A stretch of 64,000 nt of DNA from Alphaproteobacteria bacterium (GCA_016869515.1 VGDZ01000003.1:18804-82803), one strand, 5' to 3'. Positions 1-11,854 are shown, counted from the stretch's first letter. Notes: generated by a model from the letters alone, not told the origin. Translations and numbers: made by a program.

Positions 1-853
<853 letters not shown>

Positions 854-857
<4 letters not shown>

Positions 858-1702
858 CCGAGACCCGTCGCGCCGGCTGGCTGTTCGTGACGCCGATCGG
901 GTTGCTCTATCTGCTGATCCTGCTGGCGCCGCTGTCCTATTTTCTCTTGCTCAGCATCTTCAAGTATTCGGCCTTCGAGATGTATCTGTTCGAGCCCACC
1001 GCCGAGAACTACCAGCGCCTGCTGTTCGATCCCTACTACCGCGGCGTGATCTACCGCACGCTGCGCATTGCCGCCACCACCACCGTCTTCACCTTGCTGG
1101 TGGCCTATCCGCTGGCCTATTTCCTGGCCCGCTACGGCGGACCCGGGCGCGGCGTGCTGATGTTCCTGGTGATCGCGCCGCTGATGAGCGGGGTCATCGT
1201 CCGCACCTACGGCTGGATCGTGCTGCTGGGGGCCGAGGGCACGATCAACACCGCGCTGATCTGGCTGGGCGCGATCCAGCGCCCGATCCAGATCCTGCGC
1301 ACCGAGTTTGCGGTGATCATGGCGATGGTCCACATCCTGCTGCCCTACATGGTGTTTCCGCTGTTCTCGGCCATCGTCGCCCAGGAACGCAATCTCGAAC
1401 AGGCGGCGCGCACGCTCGGCGCCTCCAACTTGCGCATCTTCCTCGAGGTCACGCTGCCCTTGTCGCGGCCGGGCATCGTCATGGGCTCGGTGTTGGTGTT
1501 CACGCTTACCGCCGGCGCCATCGTCACGCCGCAACTGCTCGGCGGCAAGGAGATGAAGGTGCTGGGCATCCTGATCTACGACCTGGTGCTGACGACGCTG
1601 AACTGGCCCTTGGCCTCGGCGGTGGCCTCGCTGCTGGTGCTGCTGCAGTTCTCGGTCATCGTCCTCTATTTCCGGGGAGCGCGCGGCCGTGCCGCGGCGT
1701 GA
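854..1702 (+). CDS. ABC transporter permease (PotB-like)
   Basis: In-frame GTG at 854 overlapping upstream stop (GTGA); multi-TM protein with EAA-like loop ERNLEQAARTLGAS; the longer ORF from 569 is an N-terminal extension overlapping the ATPase gene. Confidence 0.8.
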
Positions 1703-2519
1703 CGAGATCGGCGGCTGGGGCGCGTTGCCGCGCTTCATCGGCGCGGCGGCGGTGACTCTTACCTACCTTTTCCTGCTGGCGCCGATCGTGATCGTGATCT
1801 TCACCTCGTTCAATCCGACCGAGGCCAACGCCTTTCCGCCGACTGGACTGTCGCTGCGCTGGTACCACGAGTTCGCCGAGAGCGACGGCTTCGTCTCGGC
1901 CTTTCTGTTCAGCCTGTGGCTGGGCATTCTGGCGGCGATCGGGGCGACGGCGATCGGTTTTCTCGCCGCCTACGCGCTGCTGCGCTTCTTCGCCCGCCGC
2001 CGCGAGCTTGGCCAGGCGCTGACCATGCTGCCGATGATGATCCCGCACGTGCTGATCAGCATCTCGCTGGTGTTCATGCTGACCGTGGTCGAGCTGCCCG
2101 AGACGCTGACGCTGCTGCTGGGTCATATCATCATCTGCCTGCCCTTCACCGTCGCCGGCATCCTCTCCAGCCTGGATGCGGTCGACCGCAATCTCGAGCA
2201 TGCCGCCTTCACGCTGGGTGCCTCGCGGGCGCGGGTGATGTGGGAGGTGACGCTGCCGCTGATCGCGCCCGGGCTGCTGTCGGCGCTGATCTTCGCTTTC
2301 ATCGTCTCCTTCGGCGACGTCTACATCGCCCTGTTCCTGTCCGGTCCGGGCAAGACCACGCTGCCGATCGAGATCTTCAATTACATGAATTGGCAGAGCA
2401 CGCCGGTGATCGCCGCCATCACCAGCGTCCAGGTGGCGATGATCGTCGTCCTGGGGCTGGCGATCGAGCGGCTGGTGGGCCTGCGTCACGTCATGCGCAT
2501 CGAGGAGACACGGCGATGA
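1689..2519 (+). CDS. ABC transporter permease (PotC-like)
   Basis: GTG start overlapping end of upstream permease; TM-rich; EAA-like loop DRNLEHAAFTLGASRARVMWEVTLPL. Confidence 0.8.
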   Translation: MPRRDEIGGWGALPRFIGAAAVTLTYLFLLAPIVIVIFTSFNPTEANAFPPTGLSLRWYHEFAESDGFVSAFLFSLWLGILAAIGATAIGFLAAYALLRFFARRRELGQALTMLPMMIPHVLISISLVFMLTVVELPETLTLLLGHIIICLPFTVAGILSSLDAVDRNLEHAAFTLGASRARVMWEVTLPLIAPGLLSALIFAFIVSFGDVYIALFLSGPGKTTLPIEIFNYMNWQSTPVIAAITSVQVAMIVVLGLAIERLVGLRHVMRIEETRR

Positions 2520-3508
2520 AACAGATCCAGGTCGGCACCGCGCGCGGCCAGGCCGGCGCGCGCACCGAAGGCGTGCTCAAAGTCGGCGTGCTGCCCGACG
2601 CCCGCCCGGTCGAGCTGCCGGTGATCGTGATGCAGGGCCCGGGCGACGGTCCGGTGCTATGGTTGCAGGGTTGCATCCACGGCAACGAGCAATGCGGCAC
2701 CTTCGTCATCCACCGCTTCCTCGCCGGCTTGGATCTGTCCAAGCTCAAGGGCGCGGTGATCGCGCTGCCGGTGCTGAACCTGACCGCATTCCAGTTCAAC
2801 CGCCGCACCAGCCCGTTCGAGATCTATCACGGCGGCGATCTCAACCGCGTCTTCCCGGGCGATCCCGGCGGCAACTTCACCCAGCAGATGGCGCACGTCA
2901 TCTTCCAGGCGCTGGTCGGCAATGCCGACTGCATGGTCGACTTCCACACCGCGCACCTCAAGGAGACGCGCTGGGCGCTGTTCACCAACCTGCCGGGCGC
3001 GGTCGGCAAGCGGGCCGAGCGCATGGCGCGTGCCTGGGGCTATGTGCCGACCTTCCCCACCCCGCCGACCACGCTGACCGGCGCCGCCTACATGCAGGCC
3101 GCGACCAAGCACGGCATTCCCGGGTTGATCGTCGAATGCGGCGGCAAGGGCCCGGCTTTCGACGAGGCCGCCGTCGCCGACGGCGCCGAGCGGCTGCGCA
3201 ACGTCGCCCGCGCGCTGGGCATGATCGAGGAGCCGGTGACGCGCCACGAGGGCGTGCATTACGTTTCGGACTTTGCCTGGGTGCGCGGCCGTTCGGGCGG
3301 GCTTTACCGCAACCTGGTCGAACCCGGCCAGCGCATCAAGAAGGGCCAGGTGATCGGCAAGCTGTTCGACATTTTCGGCAAGCCGCGCGAGAGCGTGCGC
3401 GCGCCCGAAGGCGGCTTTGTGCTGACGGTCAATCCGGGTCCGCTGCTGATCAGCGGCGACACGCTGATCCATATCGGCCTCAATCCGCGCCCGGCGCCGG
3501 CGCTGTAG
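2516..3508 (+). CDS. Succinylglutamate desuccinylase/aspartoacylase (AstE/AspA, M14-like zinc deacylase) family protein, paralog 1
   Basis: ATG at 2516 overlaps upstream stop (ATGA); zinc-binding HxxE motif CIHGNEQCG; NLNRVFPG, LIVECGG and C-terminal KGQVIG motifs shared with the other three paralogs; the ORF-track extension from 1916 overlaps the permease gene. Confidence 0.8.
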   Translation: MKQIQVGTARGQAGARTEGVLKVGVLPDARPVELPVIVMQGPGDGPVLWLQGCIHGNEQCGTFVIHRFLAGLDLSKLKGAVIALPVLNLTAFQFNRRTSPFEIYHGGDLNRVFPGDPGGNFTQQMAHVIFQALVGNADCMVDFHTAHLKETRWALFTNLPGAVGKRAERMARAWGYVPTFPTPPTTLTGAAYMQAATKHGIPGLIVECGGKGPAFDEAAVADGAERLRNVARALGMIEEPVTRHEGVHYVSDFAWVRGRSGGLYRNLVEPGQRIKKGQVIGKLFDIFGKPRESVRAPEGGFVLTVNPGPLLISGDTLIHIGLNPRPAPAL

Positions 3509-3518
3509 GAGCCCTGCC

Positions 3519-4550
3519 ATGGCCAAGACCAAATCGAAGACCAAGTCCAAGCCCGCCGCCGCCAAGCGCCCGGCCGATCTTGTCCTCGGCGATGCCCGCG
3601 CCAAGCCCGGCAGCAAGGCCTCGGGCTGGCTGCGCCTGGGCGATCTGCCCGATGGCCAGCCGCTGGCGATCCCGGTGCACCTGGTCAACGGCGCCAAGCC
3701 CGGTCCCTGCCTCTGGGTGCAGGCCTGCATCCATGGCGACGAATATTGCGGCGCTTTCACCGTCAATGCCTTGGTCGAACGGCTCGATCCCAAGGCGCTG
3801 GCCGGAAGGGTGATCGCGCTGCCGGCGCTCAACATCACCGCCTTCCAGGCCGGCCGCCGCACCAGCCCGTTCGAAATGCACGGCACCGGCGATCTCAACC
3901 GCTGCTTCCCGGGCAATGCCGAGGGCACCATCACCGAGCAGATGGGCCACGGCATCTTCACCGCGCTCAAGGCCCATGCCGACTACCTGATCGACTACCA
4001 CACCGGCGGGGTCAAGGAGACGCGCTGGACGCTCTATGCCGACCTGCCGGGCAAGGTCGGCGAAGCGGGAGCTGGTCTCGCCCGCGCCTACGGCTTCAAG
4101 GTGGTGCTGCCGACGCCGCCGACCACGCTCGGCGCCTCGGCCTTCATCAATGCCGCCAAGCAGGGCATTCCTTCGCTGATCGTCGAATCCGGCGGCTTCG
4201 GCCCGGCTTTCGATTCCCACCTGGTCGAGGACGGCGCCGAGCGGCTGTGCAACGTCGCCCGCCATCTCGGCATGCTGGCGGGCAAGGTCAAGGACTTCGG
4301 CCGCCAGACTTTCATCTCGGACTTCGCCTGGATCAACGGCACCACCGGCGGCCTGTTCCGGCCCACGGTCAAGGGCGGCGAGCGCATCGCCAAGGGCCAA
4401 GTCATCGGCCGCTTCACCGATCTCTACGGCGCGCTGATCGAGGAGGCCAAGGCGCCGGCCGCCGGCATCGTCCTCACCACCCATCCCGGGCCGATGATGG
4501 CCACCGGCGACACCTTGATTCAGATCGGCCTTAACCCGAAGGAAGTCTGA
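3519..4550 (+). CDS. AstE/AspA-family (M14-like) deacylase, paralog 2
   Basis: ATG 3519 ten nt after paralog 1 stop; CIHGDEYCG, DLNRCFPG, LIVESGG; closely resembles paralog 1. Confidence 0.8.
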   Translation: MAKTKSKTKSKPAAAKRPADLVLGDARAKPGSKASGWLRLGDLPDGQPLAIPVHLVNGAKPGPCLWVQACIHGDEYCGAFTVNALVERLDPKALAGRVIALPALNITAFQAGRRTSPFEMHGTGDLNRCFPGNAEGTITEQMGHGIFTALKAHADYLIDYHTGGVKETRWTLYADLPGKVGEAGAGLARAYGFKVVLPTPPTTLGASAFINAAKQGIPSLIVESGGFGPAFDSHLVEDGAERLCNVARHLGMLAGKVKDFGRQTFISDFAWINGTTGGLFRPTVKGGERIAKGQVIGRFTDLYGALIEEAKAPAAGIVLTTHPGPMMATGDTLIQIGLNPKEV

Positions 4551-4551
4551 C

Positions 4552-5805
4552 GTGAGCCAATCCCAAGTCATCGTCGGCGGCACGCTGCTGGACGGCACCG
4601 GCGCCGACCCGGTCAAGGGCGCGATGGTGGTGATCGAAAACGGCGAGATCGTCTTCGCCGGCAAGGAAAGCGCGCGCGGCCTGCCGCGCGATGCGGCGCG
4701 GATCGACGCCTCGGGCGCCAGCATCCTGCCCGGGCTGATGGACGTGCATGTCCATATCTCGCTCAACGCGCCCGCGGACCTGGTGGCCGAGGTGGTCGGA
4801 CGGCCGCTCGGCCAGGTGGCGTTCGAGGTCGCGGCCAATCTGCGCCAGACCGTGGCCGCGGGCGTCACCACCATCCGCACCGTCAGCGACCTGGCTCATC
4901 TCGACATCGCCGCCCGCGATGCCATCCGCAAGGGCATCGCCATCGGTCCGCGCATCCATCCCTGCGGCAAGGGCCTGACCACCACCGGCGGCCATGGCCA
5001 GTTGCTGCCGTGTTGGCTGTGCCAGTCGCATGGCGAGCTCAGCGAAGTGGTCGACGGCGTCGATGCCATCCGCCGCGCCGTCCGCCTGCAGGTCCAAGCC
5101 GGCGCCGCCTGGATCAAGCTGTTCCAGACCGGCGGCGTGGTCGATCCCGAGGGCCGCATCGACGCCGAGGAATTCACGCCGAGCGAATTCGCCGCCGCGG
5201 TCGAGACCGCGCATACCGCGGGACTGCCGGTGGCGGTGCACGCCCACAACCGCGCCGGCATCCTGCGTTCGATCGCCGAGGGCTGCCGCTCGATCGAGCA
5301 CGGCATGCATTTCGACGAGGAATGCGCCGCCGCGGCGCGGGCCAAGGGCGCCTACTACGTCCCGACGCTGACGGTGATGAACCGCATCATCCGCCACGGC
5401 GCCCAGGCCGGCATTCCCGACTACATGATCAAGAACGTGCGCGAGCGCCTGACCAAGCACCACCAATACGTCAAGCACGCCTTCGACATCGGCGTCGGCC
5501 TGGCTTGCGGCACCGATGCCGGCTCGCTCTTGACGCCGCACGGCTCGGCCGGTCGCGAAGTGGCGCATTTCGTCGATTGCGGGCTGAGCGTGCCGCAGGC
5601 GGTCAGCGCGGCGACGCTGGTGTCTGCGCGCATGCTCAAGGCCGAGGACAAGGTCGGCTCGCTGGCCGGCGGCAAGCGCGGCGATGCGATCGTGGTCGAG
5701 GGCGACGTCATGGCCGATGTGCGGCGGCTGGAAGTCGCCGGCAACATGCGCGCGGTGATGGTCGACGGACGCGTTGTGGCGCGCGCCGGCCATGCCCTGA
5801 GCTGA
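4552..5805 (+). CDS. Amidohydrolase-family metal-dependent hydrolase (imidazolonepropionase / Xaa-Pro dipeptidase-like)
   Basis: GTG start 2 nt after paralog 2 stop; N-terminal HxH metal motif DVHVHISLN; later conserved His/Asp (AVHAHN, GTDAGS). Confidence 0.8.
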   Translation: MSQSQVIVGGTLLDGTGADPVKGAMVVIENGEIVFAGKESARGLPRDAARIDASGASILPGLMDVHVHISLNAPADLVAEVVGRPLGQVAFEVAANLRQTVAAGVTTIRTVSDLAHLDIAARDAIRKGIAIGPRIHPCGKGLTTTGGHGQLLPCWLCQSHGELSEVVDGVDAIRRAVRLQVQAGAAWIKLFQTGGVVDPEGRIDAEEFTPSEFAAAVETAHTAGLPVAVHAHNRAGILRSIAEGCRSIEHGMHFDEECAAAARAKGAYYVPTLTVMNRIIRHGAQAGIPDYMIKNVRERLTKHHQYVKHAFDIGVGLACGTDAGSLLTPHGSAGREVAHFVDCGLSVPQAVSAATLVSARMLKAEDKVGSLAGGKRGDAIVVEGDVMADVRRLEVAGNMRAVMVDGRVVARAGHALS

Positions 5806-5822
5806 AGCGGAAGGAACCCGTC

Positions 5823-6791
5823 ATGCGCATCGGTACGCTATCGGTCAGGCCCGGCCAACGCCGCTCGGGTCAGCTGGTGCTCGGCCATTATCCCGACGGG
5901 CCGATCGTGGCCCCGCTGACGGTGGTGCGCGGCAAGCGCCCCGGCAAGACGCTGTGGATCCAGGGCTGCCTCCACGGCCAGGAGGTCGGCGGCACCGTCG
6001 GCCTGATCCGCTTTCTCGAGCGGCTCGACCCGGCTCGGATCGAGGGCGCGGTGATCGCGGTCAAGCTGGCCAATCCGCTGGCCTTTCGCGGCTATGCCCG
6101 CAACACCCCGATCGACGGCATCAACCTCAACCGGGTCTTTCCCGGCGACGCCGCGGGCTATCACTCCCAGCAGGTGGCGCATGCGCTGATGAGCACGGCG
6201 ATCGGCCACGCCGACGCTTTGGTCGATCTGCATTCCGGCGGCGAGAGCCACATCGTGCCGTTCTACGCGCTCTATCGCGACGACGGCTCGGCCGCCTCGC
6301 GCGAGGCCGGGCGCCTGGCACGAGCCGCGGCCACGGCCGACATTTGGGCTTCGCGCGATGCTTGGCTGGACGGAGCGCTGTTGACCCATTTCACGCTGCG
6401 CGGCAAGCCCGCCGTGATCGTCGAATGCGGCGGTGGCGGCGGCGTCAGCGAGCAGCAAGTTGCCAATTTCGCCGGCGCGCTCGAAGGCATGGCGCGGGCG
6501 CTGGGCATACTGCCCGGCCGGCCGCCCAGGCGCGCGCGCTATCGGGTGATGGACCAGGCGCTGCTGGTCTACAACCGCAAGGGCGGGCTGTTCCGCCCGG
6601 CGGTCGAGCCCGGCGCCGTCGTCCGCAAGGGCCAGGCGCTGGGGGCGATGCTCGACTTCGATGGCCGCGTCGTCGAGACTTTGGTTTCGCCCAACGGTCC
6701 GGCCTATGTCGCCGCCTTGCCGCGGCGCTACATGGCGCTGCACTCGGGCGCGCTGATCGCCGAAACCATCCGCATCGTCGAGGGAGGCTGA
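5823..6791 (+). CDS. AstE/AspA-family (M14-like) deacylase, paralog 3
   Basis: ATG 5823 with the long ORF 5010..6791 trimmed to the first ATG after the amidohydrolase stop; CLHGQEVGG, NLNRVFPG, IVECGGGGG; forms a second subfamily together with paralog 4. Confidence 0.8.
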   Translation: MRIGTLSVRPGQRRSGQLVLGHYPDGPIVAPLTVVRGKRPGKTLWIQGCLHGQEVGGTVGLIRFLERLDPARIEGAVIAVKLANPLAFRGYARNTPIDGINLNRVFPGDAAGYHSQQVAHALMSTAIGHADALVDLHSGGESHIVPFYALYRDDGSAASREAGRLARAAATADIWASRDAWLDGALLTHFTLRGKPAVIVECGGGGGVSEQQVANFAGALEGMARALGILPGRPPRRARYRVMDQALLVYNRKGGLFRPAVEPGAVVRKGQALGAMLDFDGRVVETLVSPNGPAYVAALPRRYMALHSGALIAETIRIVEGG

Positions 6792-6792
6792 C

Positions 6793-7776
6793 ATGGCCGC
6801 GGCCAGGAATTTCCGCATCGGCAGCGCCCTCGCCCGTCCCGGCAAGCGGGTCGAGGGCGAGTTGGTGCTGGGCCATTATCCCGATGCGCCGATCGCCACC
6901 AAGGTCACCATCGTCTCGGGCACGCGGCCGGGGCCGGTGCTGTGGGTGCAGGGCTGCATCCACGGCCCCGAGGTCGGCGGCGTGGTCGCCATGCTGCGTT
7001 TGCTCGAACGCCTCGATCCGCGCCGCATGCGCGGCAGCATCGCCTGCATCATGCTGGCCAATCCGACCGCCTTCCGCGGCTATTCGCGCAACACGCCGGT
7101 CGATACCACCAATCTCAACCGCGTCTTCCCCGGCGCGGCCGACGGCACGCACAGCCAGCAGAATGCGCACGTCCTGATCGAGACCGCGGCTTCGGTGGCC
7201 GATGCGGTGCTGGATCTGCATTCCGGCGGCGATCGCTCGCGCGTGCCCTATTACGGGCTCTATTGGGCCGAGAATTCGGACGCCTCGCGTGAGGCCGGAC
7301 GCCTCGCCCGCGCCTGCGGTACGCGCGACATCTGGGCCTCGATCGACGATTGGCTGGGCGGCGCCATGTTCACCGTGCTGACCAAGCGCGGCATTCCCTC
7401 GCTGATCGTCGAATGCGGCGGCGGCGGCCAGGTGCCCGAAGCCCATGTCGCCAATTTCGTCGCCGCCATGACCGGCGTGGCGCAATCCATGGGCATCCTG
7501 CCCGGCCGGCCCAAGCGCTTTGCGCGCTATCGCGTGTTCGACGAAAGTGCCCTGATCTACAGCCGCAAGGGCGGACTGTTCCGGCCGCTGGTCGAACCCG
7601 GCGACATCGTCGAGAAAGGCCATGTGCTGGGCGAGATCGTCGATCTCTCGGGCAAGGTGGTGGAACGGCCGCGGGCCAGCATCGGCCCGTCCTACATCGC
7701 CTCGATCCGCCGGCCCTGGATGCCGGTCTATTCGGGCGACCAGATCGCCGAATGCAACCGCGTCATCGCGAGCTGA
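6793..7776 (+). CDS. AstE/AspA-family (M14-like) deacylase, paralog 4
   Basis: ATG 6793 two nt after paralog 3 stop; CIHGPEVGG, NLNRVFPG, LIVECGGGG; high similarity to paralog 3. Confidence 0.8.
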   Translation: MAAARNFRIGSALARPGKRVEGELVLGHYPDAPIATKVTIVSGTRPGPVLWVQGCIHGPEVGGVVAMLRLLERLDPRRMRGSIACIMLANPTAFRGYSRNTPVDTTNLNRVFPGAADGTHSQQNAHVLIETAASVADAVLDLHSGGDRSRVPYYGLYWAENSDASREAGRLARACGTRDIWASIDDWLGGAMFTVLTKRGIPSLIVECGGGGQVPEAHVANFVAAMTGVAQSMGILPGRPKRFARYRVFDESALIYSRKGGLFRPLVEPGDIVEKGHVLGEIVDLSGKVVERPRASIGPSYIASIRRPWMPVYSGDQIAECNRVIAS

Positions 7777-7783
7777 AACGCCT

Positions 7784-8701
7784 CTAATCCAGGCCGACGG
7801 CGCGGCGGTAAAGCGCCTCCGCCTCCAGCGTCACCGGCCCGGGGCAGCCGCGGCCGATGGCGCGGCCATCGACCGCGCGCACCGGCGTCACCCCGCCCAG
7901 CGTGCCGGTGACAAAGGCCTCGTCGGCCGCATAGACCTCGGCCAGCGTGAAATCGCATTCCCGCGCCTGATTTCCGGCGGCGCGCCAGGCCTCGATCACG
8001 CTGCGCTGGGTGATGCCGGGAAAGCTGTAGCGATGGGTCGAGGTCCACAGCTCGCGGCCGCGGACGATGAAGAAATTGGTCGAGTTGCAGGAGGCGACGA
8101 AACCCCGCGGATCCAGCATCAACGCCTCGTCGGCGCCGGCCTTGATCGCCTGGATCAGCGCCTGGATCAGGTTTAGCCGGCTGTGCGAATTGAGCCGCAT
8201 GTCGAACTGGTCGGGCGCGGTGGTGCGGAAGGTCGAGGTGAATAGGGCATAGCCCCGCCGCTTGGCCTCGGGCGGCGGCGCCTTGTATTCGGCCACGATC
8301 ACCACCGTCGCCCCGCCGACCACGAAACGCGGATCCTGGTTGGGCGTGCGCTTGACGCCGCGTGTCACCATCACCCGCAGATGCGCGCCGTCAGTCATGG
8401 CGTTGCGTTCCAGCGTCGCCGCGATGGCGCGCTTCAGTCCATCGCGATCAAATCCGATGTCGAGGTCGATCGCCCGCGCCCCTTCGAAAAGCCGGTCGAG
8501 ATGCGCCTCGAGGCTGATCAGCCTTCCCTTGGCCAGGCGCAGCCCCTCCCACACCCCATCGCCCAGCACGAAGCCGGAATCGAACACCGAGACCCGTGCG
8601 CGGTCGCGCGGCACGAATTCGCCATTGACGTAGACCAGCACCGCGTCGTTGCGGGGATCGGGCAGGTAGGCCTGCGCGCTTTGTGCCGCCGTCGGGTTCA
8701 T
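7784..8701 (-). CDS. Class IV (fold-type IV) aminotransferase, branched-chain amino acid / D-amino acid aminotransferase family
   Basis: 305-aa ORF with ATG at 8701; fold-type IV motifs (ExHLDRL, NxFxV, TGTLGGVTPV). Confidence 0.8.
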   Translation of the reverse strand: MNPTAAQSAQAYLPDPRNDAVLVYVNGEFVPRDRARVSVFDSGFVLGDGVWEGLRLAKGRLISLEAHLDRLFEGARAIDLDIGFDRDGLKRAIAATLERNAMTDGAHLRVMVTRGVKRTPNQDPRFVVGGATVVIVAEYKAPPPEAKRRGYALFTSTFRTTAPDQFDMRLNSHSRLNLIQALIQAIKAGADEALMLDPRGFVASCNSTNFFIVRGRELWTSTHRYSFPGITQRSVIEAWRAAGNQARECDFTLAEVYAADEAFVTGTLGGVTPVRAVDGRAIGRGCPGPVTLEAEALYRRAVGLD

Positions 8702-8711
8702 GGTTGCGACC

Positions 8712-9476
8712 TCAGAGGCTGAACTGTTTATGGCTGGCGATGAAGGCCCGAGTCGCCGCCTGACGCGGTTCCTTCAGCACCTCGGCCGGCGTCCCCTGCT
8801 CGTGGATCAGTCCATCGGCCAGGAACAGCACGCGCGAGGCGACATGATAAGCGAACCCCAGCTCGTGGGTGACCAGCAGCATGGTGCGGCCGTCCTCGGC
8901 CAAGGCGCGGATCGTCCCCAGCACCTCGCCGACCAGCGCCGGATCCAGCGCCGAGGTCGGCTCGTCGAACAGCAGCAGCGCCGGATCCATCGCCAGCGCC
9001 CGGGCGATCGCCACGCGCTGCTTCTGTCCGCCGCTGAGATGGGCCGGGTAGGCATCGGCCTTGTCGGCCAGGCCGACCCGCGCCAGCTCGGCCCGGCCCC
9101 GCGCCTCGGCCTGGACCCGGTCTTGGCCGAGCACGGTCAGCGGCCCCTCCATGACGTTGCCCAGCGCGGTCATGTGCGGAAACAGGTTGAAGTGCTGGAA
9201 CACCATCCCGACCTGACGGCGGATTTGGGTCAGTTCGCGCTCGGCATAGCGGCGGCGGCCGTCGCGCTCGCTGCCGACGACCTGGCCGCCGAATTCGACC
9301 CGGCCCTCGTCCGGCAGTTCCATGAAGTTGATGCAGCGCAGCAGCGTGCTCTTGCCCGAGCCCGATGCGCCAAGGATGGCGATGCGCTCGCCGCGCTCGA
9401 CCGTAAGGTCGATGCCGCGCAGCACCGGGTTGGCGCCGAAGCGCTTGACCAGGCCGGCGAGGCGCAACACCGTCAT
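8712..9476 (-). CDS. Polar amino-acid ABC transporter ATP-binding protein (HisP/GlnQ family)
   Basis: Walker A GASGSGKST, signature LSGGQKQRVAIARAL, Walker B LLLFDEPTSALD; start is the internal Met (MTVLRL) that overlaps the upstream permease stop (ATGA); the first 100 aa of the track ORF overlap the permease gene. Confidence 0.85.
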   Translation of the reverse strand: MTVLRLAGLVKRFGANPVLRGIDLTVERGERIAILGASGSGKSTLLRCINFMELPDEGRVEFGGQVVGSERDGRRRYAERELTQIRRQVGMVFQHFNLFPHMTALGNVMEGPLTVLGQDRVQAEARGRAELARVGLADKADAYPAHLSGGQKQRVAIARALAMDPALLLFDEPTSALDPALVGEVLGTIRALAEDGRTMLLVTHELGFAYHVASRVLFLADGLIHEQGTPAEVLKEPRQAATRAFIASHKQFSL

Positions 9477-10132
9477 TCGCCCCCCTTCAGCCGCCGCTCG
9501 AGCCAATAGCTCAGCTGCACCAGCGGCCAGAGAATGACGGAGAAAATCGCCGCCACGGCGGTATAGACCTCGATCGGATTGTAGTAGAGCGAAGCGATCA
9601 GCTTGCCCTGCTGCAGCAGCTCGACATAGGCCACCGCCGAAGCCAGCGTCGACATCTTGAAGATCTCGATGGCACGGTTGGCCAGCGCCGGCAGCATGCG
9701 CTTGATCGCCTGCGGCAGGATCACGCGCCGCATCGCCTGCAGCCAGCTCATGCCCAGCGCCCGCGCTCCGTCCCATTGGCCGCGCTCGATCGACTGGATG
9801 CCGCCGCGGTAGATCTCGGCCGAGAACGCCGCCGAGTTGAGCGAGATGCCCAGCACCGCGGCCGTCAGCGGCCCGATCTGGAACGGCAGCAGGATCGGCA
9901 GCGCGAAGAAGAACCAGATGATCTGCACCAGCACCGGCGTGTTGCGGAAGAACTCGACAAACGCGGTCGCCGGCGCCCGCAGCCAGGGATTGCGGGCATA
10001 TCGCCCGAGTCCGACCGGCAGCCCGAGCCCCAATCCCAGCACCAGGCAGATGGCGAAGATACGCAGCGTGCCGACGGCGCCGATCGCCAGCACGTCGGCA
10101 TGCTCGATCACCGTGGCGAAATCCCAGCGCAT
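9473..10132 (-). CDS. Amino-acid ABC transporter permease (HisM/GlnP family)
   Basis: Starts at MRWDFATV (Met 107 of the track ORF); TM-rich; EAA loop IERGQWDGARALGMSWLQAMRRVILPQA. Confidence 0.85.
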   Translation of the reverse strand: MRWDFATVIEHADVLAIGAVGTLRIFAICLVLGLGLGLPVGLGRYARNPWLRAPATAFVEFFRNTPVLVQIIWFFFALPILLPFQIGPLTAAVLGISLNSAAFSAEIYRGGIQSIERGQWDGARALGMSWLQAMRRVILPQAIKRMLPALANRAIEIFKMSTLASAVAYVELLQQGKLIASLYYNPIEVYTAVAAIFSVILWPLVQLSYWLERRLKGGE

Positions 10133-10809
10133 CAGCCGACCGTCCCTTCGCCGCTGCGCGCCAGCCTGAGTTCGATCCGCCGCGCCAACAGACTCGCGCC
10201 GTAGATCACGGTGAAATAGGCCAGCGCCACCGCGGTATAGGTCTCGAGCGGGCGGAAGGTCTTTTGCGACACCTCGTTGGCGGCGAACAGCAGATCGGCA
10301 TAGGAGATGGTGGCGACCAGAGTGGTGGTCTTCATCAGTTCGATGGCGCGTTCCATGAAGGCCGGGATCATGCGCTTGACCGCCTGCGGCAGGACGATGC
10401 GCCGCAGCGCCTGGCCGCGGTTCATGCCCAGCGCCCGGGCGGCGTCCCACTGGCCACGCTCGATCGATTCGATGCCGGCACGGAACACTTCGGCGAAGAA
10501 CGCCGCCGATTGGATCGAGAAGGTCACCAGCGCCGCCAGATAGGGCGTCATTTCGACGCCGACCACCAGCGGCGCCGCGAAGTAGAACCAGAACAACTGC
10601 ACCAAAGGCGGCGTGGTGCGGAAGACCTCGATCACCAACCCGGCCGGCCAGGCTGCCCAGGGCCGCCGCGACAGCCGCATCAGCGCGAGCCCGAGGCCAA
10701 GCGCGACGCCGAACGCCAGCGCCGCGCCGGTCAGGCGCAGGGTGTTGAACAGCCCGATCGCCAGCAGATCGAGATGGGCGGCGACCGGCGCGAAGTCCCA
10801 GCGATACAC
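10132..10809 (-). CDS. Amino-acid ABC transporter permease (HisQ family)
   Basis: 225 aa; MYRWDFAPV start resembles the neighbouring permease; EAA loop IERGQWDAARALGMNRGQALRRIVLPQA. Confidence 0.85.
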   Translation of the reverse strand: MYRWDFAPVAAHLDLLAIGLFNTLRLTGAALAFGVALGLGLALMRLSRRPWAAWPAGLVIEVFRTTPPLVQLFWFYFAAPLVVGVEMTPYLAALVTFSIQSAAFFAEVFRAGIESIERGQWDAARALGMNRGQALRRIVLPQAVKRMIPAFMERAIELMKTTTLVATISYADLLFAANEVSQKTFRPLETYTAVALAYFTVIYGASLLARRIELRLARSGEGTVG

Positions 10810-10825
10810 CGGCCTCGCGCCGGCG

Positions 10826-11662
10826 CTACTTGATCATTTCCTTCATCACCGGCGGCGCCAGCTTGGGATCGAGCCCGAACTCGCTCAGCGCCTGCTCGTA
10901 CCATTTCTGGGTCTGGCCGCTCTGGTAGTACTGCACCAGCTGCTTGTCGACCCAGGCGGCGAAAGCGGTGTCGCCCTTGCGCAGCGCAGCGCTCGAGGCC
11001 TGCGATTGCGCCGGCGTCGGCACCACGATCGCGCCCTTGCCCAGCCGCTGGCGCGCCGCCAGCAGCGGCGGGTGGAACAAGCAGACGGCGTCGGCGCGCC
11101 CCGACTGGAAGGCGGCGATGGCGGCGGCGTTGTCGGGATAGCGCTGGATCTCGGCCTTGGCGGCGTGCTCGGTGAGGAAGCGATCCATCGACGAAGCCTG
11201 GGGCACGGCGATGCGCACGCCCGGCTTGTTGAGATCCGCCCACGCCTTGACCGGCAGGTCCTCGCGCGCCAGCACCGCCAGCGAATAGAAGAGCAGCGGC
11301 GCTTCCGGGAAGTCGACCGCCTGGCGCCGTTCGGCGGTGGCGTCGAGCATGAACATCAAGTCGATCTTGTCCGATTGCAACGCCGCGATCGCGGTGCCCC
11401 AGGCGACCTCGACCGTCTCCATCTTGACGCCCAGCGTCTGCGCCATCGCCCGGCCCATGGCGATGCCGAGGCCGGAATTCCATTCCCCGCTGCGCGGGTC
11501 CTTGGAATACCAGGGCGGCGCCTGGGTGACGCCGATGCGGAAAGTGCCGCGTTTTTTGACGTCGTCGAGCGTGGCGGTCTGGCCAAAGGCGAGGAAGGGC
11601 TGCCCCGCAAGGCCGGCGCCGGCGGCGATGATGGCTAGGCTGTGGCGGCGGGTGATGGTCAT
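10826..11662 (-). CDS. Amino-acid ABC transporter substrate-binding protein (family 3), Tat/Sec signal peptide
   Basis: Start at the internal Met (MTITRRHSLAIIAAGAGLAG, twin-arginine-like signal), ATG at 11662; periplasmic-binding-fold sequence. Confidence 0.8.
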   Translation of the reverse strand: MTITRRHSLAIIAAGAGLAGQPFLAFGQTATLDDVKKRGTFRIGVTQAPPWYSKDPRSGEWNSGLGIAMGRAMAQTLGVKMETVEVAWGTAIAALQSDKIDLMFMLDATAERRQAVDFPEAPLLFYSLAVLAREDLPVKAWADLNKPGVRIAVPQASSMDRFLTEHAAKAEIQRYPDNAAAIAAFQSGRADAVCLFHPPLLAARQRLGKGAIVVPTPAQSQASSAALRKGDTAFAAWVDKQLVQYYQSGQTQKWYEQALSEFGLDPKLAPPVMKEMIK

Positions 11663-11854
11663 GGCGGTCCTCCCAAGCTTGGCTTTCGGGTTATCGGCGC
11701 ACTCTATCCACCGCGCCCTGGCCGGGCAACTCACGCCAAATTGCTCTTCGGCTTGGCCGAATTTCGAGGCCTGAAACTCAAGCCCGGTTCCCTATCTGTC
11801 CGCCAGGCCTCATGGGCCGGTCGGGCGTCTCACAGAGCGGTCGGCGCTGATGGC

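Follow-up and report, generated by a model that had tools for sequence, protein, structure and literature searches.

The window analyzed here is a stretch of 64,000 nucleotides (nt) from an Alphaproteobacteria bacterium (GCA_016869515.1 VGDZ01000003.1:18804-82803), and the subject of this report is the gene cluster at its left end, in which the genes of an ATP-binding cassette (ABC) importer are followed by four paralogous genes for predicted zinc deacylases, designated P1 to P4. The four paralogs belong to one enzyme family, retain all of its catalytic residues, and form two tandem pairs, P1 with P2 (clade A) and P3 with P4 (clade B), within a module that is conserved across related loci in variable composition. 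A preliminary description of the window had treated them as a single array at 2516-7776; the four genes do occupy these positions, but they are not contiguous, as a gene for an amidohydrolase of 417 amino acids (4552-5805) lies between the two pairs. The features of the cluster are as follows.

6-857, plus strand: ABC transporter ATPase, PotA-like; an open reading frame with its 5' end cut by the window edge; its orthologs contain ABC_tran and TOBE_2 and lie directly upstream of two permeases.
857-1702, plus strand: ABC permease 1, BPD_transp_1 type, from translation; its position is kept in all related loci.
1689-2519, plus strand: ABC permease 2; the end of this gene and the start codon of P1 share 4 nt (ATGA).
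2516-3508, plus strand: P1, a clade-A deacylase with 330 amino acids, Lys-211 type ('AK') (Pfam PF24827, E = 2.9e-23).
3519-4550, plus strand: P2, a clade-A deacylase with 343 amino acids, hydrophobic-211 type ('AΦ'; the residue is Phe) (Pfam PF24827, E = 4.4e-26).
4552-5805, plus strand: hydrolase of the amidohydrolase superfamily, COG1228-like, 417 amino acids, with the HxH motif DVHVH (Pfam Amidohydro_1, E = 1.4e-41).
5823-6791, plus strand: P3, a clade-B deacylase with 322 amino acids that occupies the first (B1) position (Pfam PF24827, E = 1.3e-23).
6793-7776, plus strand: P4, clade-B deacylase of the B2 type, 327 amino acids (Pfam PF24827, E = 3.5e-24); it clusters with B2 genes from the other loci.

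The start codon of permease 1 is uncertain; the longest open reading frame begins at 569, and the likely start lies just past the ATPase stop. The spacing of the genes ranges from an overlap of 4 nt to gaps of 1-17 nt (P4 starts 1 nt past the stop of P3), and every gene has its own Shine-Dalgarno sequence, that of P1 being GAGGAG. No promoter-like site was found in the operon, and the 6 terminator-like sites compare with a chance expectation of 3.9 ± 2.3. Considering the tight spacing and the lack of internal promoter or terminator signals above chance, the simplest reading is that these genes constitute a single operon, which would comprise the importer genes and five metal-dependent amidohydrolases. 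It is to be noted that P2, as read from its predicted start codon, begins with a Lys-rich, low-complexity tail, MAKTKSKTKSKPAAAKRPA (3519-3575). A similar Lys-rich tail, MAAKKPAKSKAKKSAKPKTNRP, is found in the P2 ortholog of the related locus L083 (4304-4370), and in L081 and L092 the P2 orthologs are also extended at the N terminus, but not by a Lys-rich segment.

All four paralogs match the Pfam family PF24827 (AstE_AspA_cat), with scores of 82.8-92.1 bits against a gathering cut-off of 25 (E = 1e-23 to 1e-26). Seven residues, namely H55, E58, R97, N110, R111, H144, and E207 (P1 numbering is used throughout), are invariant in P1-P4, and the complete catalytic set is also found in nearly all of the approximately 166 relatives with near-full coverage, the exceptions being B1 of L090 (H55Y) and B2 of L101 (H144Q). 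By correspondence with aspartoacylase and carboxypeptidase A, we take H55, E58, and H144 to be the zinc ligands and E207 to be the catalytic glutamate, whereas R97, N110, and R111, presumably equivalent to R63, N70, and R71 of aspartoacylase, would bind the carbonyl and the alpha-carboxylate. By family and residue set, then, P1-P4 are AstE/AspA-type (M14-like) zinc deacylases, with the activity being predicted. An AlphaFold2 model of P1, which was the only paralog modeled, had a predicted local distance difference test (pLDDT) score of 96.2 and showed a two-domain fold, in which the catalytic domain is alpha/beta and the C-terminal one is beta. Its matches among solved structures were, in order, 6TWM, 3NA6, 3CDX, 2QJ8, and then CphZ, and sequence searches of the Protein Data Bank (PDB) agreed with this; the template modeling (TM) score was 0.81 to EutE/DoeB (6TWM), at 26% identity, and 0.79 to 3NA6.

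Identity of the paralogs with DoeB/EutE itself (TIGR02994) was considered and rejected, since P1-P4 scored 89.2-109.7 bits against a cut-off of 402.7. The gene context also argues against it, as no M24 hydrolase (eutD/doeA) lies beside the array, either in the window, where the neighbors are the ABC permeases, the COG1228 amidohydrolase, and a class IV aminotransferase, or in the related loci. In NCBIfam, P1-P4 gave no AstE match, and aspartoacylase scored 18.7 bits against a cut-off of 180. The best NCBIfam match of the middle gene was the Caulobacter-type Xaa-Pro dipeptidase, at 272 bits, which is under the 500-bit cut-off; an amidohydrolase occupies the same position in L081, L083, L085, L087, L092, and others, and it is an optional member of the module.

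The two-subfamily structure proposed in the preliminary description was borne out by pairwise identities (BLASTP), which were 52% for P1-P2 (E = 1e-121) and 58.6% for P3-P4 (E = 2e-140), but 33-38% across the pairs (E = 1e-50 to 3e-61), a difference far beyond chance. The motifs that had been quoted as shared within each pair are indeed present, albeit with one-residue slips: LPTPPTTL is exact in P2 only, P1 having FPTPPTTL; YARNTP of P3 is YSRNTP in P4; LIVECGGGG of P4 is VIVECGGGG in P3; and SRKGG of P4 is NRKGG in P3. The accompanying statement that the catalytic core alone is conserved across the subfamilies was too strong, as the four proteins have 68 invariant columns in common, which extend to the N-terminal strands and to the C-terminal beta domain (e.g., G261, G262, L263, R265, K276, G277, D285, and G314).

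It had also been suggested that the four genes descend from a duplicated ancestral two-gene unit of alpha/beta type. This origin accords with the superficial two-plus-two layout around a central gene, and with that layout only. It predicts the grouping ((P1,P3),(P2,P4)), whereas the identities given above, as well as neighbor-joining (NJ) trees, produce the opposite, i.e., ((P1,P2),(P3,P4)). In an NJ tree of 65 members, clade A (87% bootstrap) was apart from clade B (97%), with an overall support of 87-100% for the separation, and the single-copy proteins and independent Bacillales arrays branched nearer to clade B than clade A did; these trees were built from numpy distances with NJ bootstrap, and the deep nodes within clade A had bootstrap values of 16-49. 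Furthermore, there are related loci that carry an A pair and no B gene, or B1 alone, and a homogenizing gene conversion, through which the prediction might have been obscured, is not indicated by the nucleotide comparison described below. Descent from a two-gene unit is, therefore, regarded as extremely improbable. As every gene is most closely related to its neighbor within the pair, both pairs stem from tandem duplications.

Recent gene conversion was also considered as the source of the stretches shared within pairs and was rejected: identity at third codon positions was 0.59-0.63 within pairs against 0.48-0.55 across them, and identical nucleotides extended over 20-21 nt at most. With third-position identity within pairs barely above that across pairs, and with identical runs this short, the duplications are old, and the shared stretches reflect selection at the protein level. 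The assignment of P3 to the B1 ortholog group of other loci is uncertain; because P3 and its L083 ortholog carry B2-like residues at the positions diagnostic of B1 and B2 (53 and 86 in P3), the B pair of the window may be a lineage-specific re-duplication. Separately, independent arrays of 3-5 tandem paralogs were observed in Bacillales, where they form their own clade near clade B (L008, 5148-10981; L012; L015); the plasmid NZ_CP062791.1 of Cytobacillus oceanisediminis is among the carriers, and multi-copy arrays are thus recurrent in the family. A search of the plasmid collection returned no relative of more than 32% identity.

Approximately 90 related loci, denoted here by L numbers, were obtained by exact-protein look-up, a genome scan with the four-paralog alignment, and a metagenome scan on a clade-A-specific motif; the scan of the genome collection with the four-paralog alignment produced at least three close loci among the matches listed, which were otherwise generic motifs. 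The order of the module is (IclR regulator), SBP_bac_8 binding protein, ATPase with TOBE_2, permease, permease, A, A, and a variable tail. The portion from the binding protein to the second clade-A gene recurs in dozens of loci, the optional tail being composed of the amidohydrolase, B1, and B2; orthologous pairs are found in the same order in other genomes, and the clade-A pair is directly 3' of permease 2 in nearly every related locus. When the arrays with at least 1.2 kb of contig past the last family gene were classified, the indicative counts were: A pair alone, 15 loci; A pair with B1, 5 loci (once with B1 upstream); A pair with the amidohydrolase, 4 loci; A pair with the amidohydrolase and B1, 1 locus; A pair with the amidohydrolase, B1, and B2, 6 loci; A pair with B1 and B2, 2 loci; and a single clade-A gene in another context, 4 loci. 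Given these counts, the four-paralog layout of the window is one state of an additive series and not a fixed unit, which fits a toolkit of separate enzymes. The cultured carriers include Oceanibacterium hippocampi, in which the complete series A, A, amidohydrolase, B, B is found (L085), and Falsiroseomonas sp. HW251, in which four deacylase genes are consecutive (L089).

The flanks of the module were also compared. In the 21 loci with at least 4.5 kb 5' of the ATPase gene, a binding protein gene was present in all 21, an IclR gene in 14, and HyuA/HyuB-type genes in 12. The last of these are mostly divergently transcribed and caprolactamase-like, at 481 bits against a cut-off of 1000; genes of this type, for ATP-dependent hydantoinases/lactamases, were seen in L085 (1-3586), L086 (1037-5072), L089 (282-4222), L091, L093, L097, L147, L163, and L001. 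Downstream, no conserved partner was found among the neighbors in 31 loci. L-piperidine-6-carboxylate dehydrogenase, also named alpha-aminoadipate semialdehyde dehydrogenase, adjoins the array in L085 (15882-17390; 822 bits, cut-off 730), L088 (11016-12524), and L144 (932-2665), and a saccharopine-dehydrogenase-like pair does so in L087 (12020-14628) and L125. Two sequence variants among these loci may be recorded here. In L090, two frames share what should be one gene, the second of clade A (8003-8981 and 9007-9993, covering model positions 1-106 and 104-325), which denotes either a frameshift or an assembly error. In arrays with B1 and without B2 (L086, 10983-11972; L091, 10983-11951; L093, 10983-11963), the FPG that follows the Asn-Arg motif, and is invariant otherwise, is lost, the B1 sequences reading NRLFEKP, NRLFGPP, and NRLFDPV; these form a separate, well-supported subclade.

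The most consistent difference between the two members of a clade-A pair was found at position 211, four residues past E207. In 52 of the 52 loci in which both clade-A genes are complete, one member has Lys or Arg at this position and its partner has Ile, Leu, Met, Val, Phe, or Tyr, with a within-pair identity of 50-72% across the 52 pairs; in most loci, the 211 difference is accompanied by Val versus Thr at 151. P1 and P2 differ at 52, 57, 146, 208, and 211, which are at most four residues from catalytic ones, and the positions beside catalytic residues that distinguish the members of the pair in most loci are 151 and 211. On the P1 model, residue 211 is immediately past the E207 strand and residue 151 is in the hairpin after the H144 strand. 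The location of these discriminating residues near the catalytic ones may be a slight hint of altered specificity.

This fixed difference also bears on the view that the paralogs are redundant isozymes, kept for dosage and with no meaningful difference within a pair, as their common fold, catalytic residues, and operon might suggest. Redundant copies would not keep a difference that is found in 52/52 pairs and are usually lost, whereas the pairs in question are of old date (about 50-60% identity), with both copies retained separately across many genomes; redundancy is, thus, considered quite improbable.

The usual order of the clade-A genes is the hydrophobic type followed by the Lys type, and it is reversed in the window and in L081, L083, and L092; in this subgroup, P1 is of the Lys type and the P2 counterpart is of the Phe/Tyr type. 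P1 and P2 are about equally far (50-51%) from both 211 types of the other loci, and the two groups of Lys-type genes do not come together in the trees. The reversal could be due either to an inversion of the gene order or to convergent origin of the 211 types, and the split into two types could have occurred once or repeatedly.

The pairs are genuine, old, and conserved units, and the question is whether their members work together in one protein. The preliminary description had proposed heteromeric pairs. On this view, mixed oligomers would be formed by P1 and P2, and possibly by P3 and P4 as well, either as a single enzyme that has active sites of two kinds or with one partner stabilizing or regulating the other. 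The strict and adjacent co-occurrence of the two clade-A types in the 52 complete pairs is in line with such assembly, as is the fact that the complementarity at 211 was kept despite the reversed gene order of the window subgroup. Relatives are homo-oligomers, e.g., the CphZ dimer, which makes cross-assembly of paralogs plausible. Among the loci surveyed, moreover, there was no B2 gene without B1 and no Lys/Arg-type A gene without its hydrophobic partner. However, the converse does not hold: the four or five clade-A singletons, which are nested in the clade of paired genes (L144, L145, L158, and L159), are all of the hydrophobic type, and B1 lacks B2 in at least nine loci, so that these two partners do occur alone. 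All four deacylases of the window have the full catalytic set, leaving no pseudo-enzyme partner among them. Nor do the genes of a pair lie closer together, from stop to start, than genes of different pairs: the gaps within A pairs are 4-95 nt, while between the second clade-A gene and B1 there is often 1 nt or an overlap. Finally, no two-domain fusion was found among close relatives in collections of 5.8 billion or 1.8 billion proteins; all close homologs are 190-372 amino acids long. Among the best 150 representatives, P0287 (483 amino acids) has two matched stretches but is not a close relative (30-35% identity), and those longer than 400 amino acids with one matched stretch each (P0349, 415; P0323, 470; P0373, 645 amino acids) are similarly 30-35% identical. 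On balance, mixed-subunit enzymes are a tentative hypothesis, which we find possible but doubtful.

The more specific version, in which the clade-A pair is an obligate heterodimeric M14-like deacylase with one Lys/Arg-type and one hydrophobic-type subunit, is less probable still, and we consider it unlikely. As the gene order is reversed in the window lineage and the trees fail to bring the Lys-type groups together, the complementarity at 211 may, on this version, have arisen or been re-sorted more than once. If true, it would be the first heteromeric AstE/AspA enzyme, dedicated to an imported compound that is possibly lactam-derived or lysine-yielding.

The reading that we favor, although with restrained confidence, is that P1-P4 are autonomous paralogous enzymes of diverged specificity, encoded in one uncharacterized catabolic operon. 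The operon would open with the genes of a PotABCD-like ABC importer, those for the binding protein and for an IclR-type regulator being located beyond the left edge of the window, and would continue with five metal-dependent amidohydrolases, four of them AstE/AspA/DoeB-type zinc deacylases and one a COG1228 amidohydrolase. Each paralog would cleave, on its own, an N-acyl or isopeptide bond beside a free alpha-carboxylate, the two paralogs of a pair differing in their preference for substrate or acyl group, with position 211 as the most consistent marker. Together, the enzymes would strip several amide bonds, sequentially or in parallel, from an imported compound or family of compounds. What is known of relatives is in line with this reading, as CphZ is a homodimer and EutD and EutE were not seen to form a stable complex in vitro. 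We infer the diverged specificity, the assembly of each paralog on its own and not in mixed form, and the catabolic role from the features described above, and several considerations weigh against them. The divergence in specificity is deduced from a few sequence positions, and no more than about 26% identity is shared with the nearest characterized enzyme, EutE/DoeB. When a homo-oligomeric enzyme is duplicated, the copies often go on interacting with each other, and the absence of a solitary Lys/Arg-type gene is what would be expected of an obligate partner subunit. The survey itself was biased, in that a clade-A motif served as the seed of the metagenome scan, some of the loci nearly duplicate one another, and truncated contigs are numerous, due to which its counts are indicative.

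With regard to the substrate, the combination of a PotD-like importer with up to five amidohydrolases that would recognize a free carboxylate indicates catabolism of an imported amide compound, such as an N-acyl amino acid, an isopeptide, or a small multi-amide compound. The association with HyuA/HyuB-type genes suggests that ATP-dependent opening of a lactam or hydantoin ring may belong to the same pathway, and the dehydrogenase neighbors hint at lysine as a possible product. These neighborhood hints point, if faintly, to a compound that is a lactam or an acyl-amino acid or that yields lysine.

In summary, P1-P4 are new, uncharacterized additions to an enzyme family already known, and their catabolic operon is conserved but of an ordinary kind; no major open question is touched by them. 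The operon nevertheless defines two uncharacterized subfamilies of a known deacylase family that are tied to a PotD-type ABC importer. The carriers are alpha- and betaproteobacteria, mostly uncultured, in which the module often adjoins HyuA/HyuB lactamase/hydantoinase genes and sometimes lysine-catabolic genes. Identification of the substrate would fill an annotation gap in the catabolism of dissolved organic nitrogen in soil and sea, and the Lys/hydrophobic dichotomy at 211 offers a concrete handle on either specificity or assembly.

Beyond the operon, a gene for a class IV (branched-chain or D-amino-acid) aminotransferase at 7784-8701 on the minus strand converges on P4, with 7 nt between the two stops; its position next to the array is not conserved in other loci. 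Downstream of the aminotransferase gene, the genes of a polar-amino-acid-type ABC transporter (8712-11734, minus strand) possibly form a separate operon for amino-acid uptake, as follows.

8712-9776, minus strand: ATPase of the polar-amino-acid-type ABC transporter.
9473-10450 and 10132-10809, minus strand: permeases of the same transporter.
10826-11734, minus strand: binding protein of the same transporter.

In the literature that was searched, no paper was found on tandem AstE/AspA pairs or on the importer operon of P1-P4, and comparison was made with characterized or structurally solved members of the family. The founding members of Pfam AstE_AspA, namely the succinylglutamate desuccinylase AstE and the mammalian aspartoacylase and aminoacylase 3, share with P1-P4 the catalytic machinery and the chemistry of N-acyl amino acid hydrolysis; however, they are remote structural matches to P1 (TM 0.5-0.57), and the window has no ast operon context. 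Three alphaproteobacterial proteins, 3CDX of Rhodobacter sphaeroides, 3NA6 of Ruegeria sp. TM1040, and 2QJ8 of Mesorhizobium loti, belong to the same EutE-like subgroup as P1-P4, but they are uncharacterized structural-genomics proteins of 21-27% identity that are not known as tandem pairs. CphZ/AotO (8EIN), which hydrolyzes the cyanophycin dipeptide beta-Asp-Arg/Lys, has the same superfamily fold and H-E-H zinc triad as P1-P4 and cleaves an isopeptide bond beside a free carboxylate, yielding Arg or Lys; it is a homodimer (PMC9974463). It differs from P1 in being only about 14% identical (TM ~0.73) and in belonging to a distinct subfamily, cd06250, and it is a single-copy gene linked to cyanophycin genes, in contrast to the PotD-type ABC importer of the window.

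The best solved match is EutE/DoeB of Ruegeria pomeroyi, the N-alpha-acetyl-L-2,4-diaminobutyrate deacetylase of ectoine catabolism (6TWL/6TWM; sequence E ~1e-23). It is a single gene in its cluster and not part of a tandem pair, a juxtaposed eutD/doeA has been a criterion for its assignment, and no stable complex between EutD and EutE was observed in vitro (PMC8739950). Its cluster has a transporter of the TRAP kind (tripartite, periplasmic, and ATP-independent) where the window has an ABC system, and the M24 protein EutD/DoeA as neighbor where the window has the COG1228 amidohydrolase. Nonetheless, EutE/DoeB shares with P1-P4 the two-domain architecture, the H-x-x-E...H zinc site, and the catalytic Glu, and, as proposed here for the genes of the window, it is encoded in a transporter-linked catabolic operon (PMC8739950).

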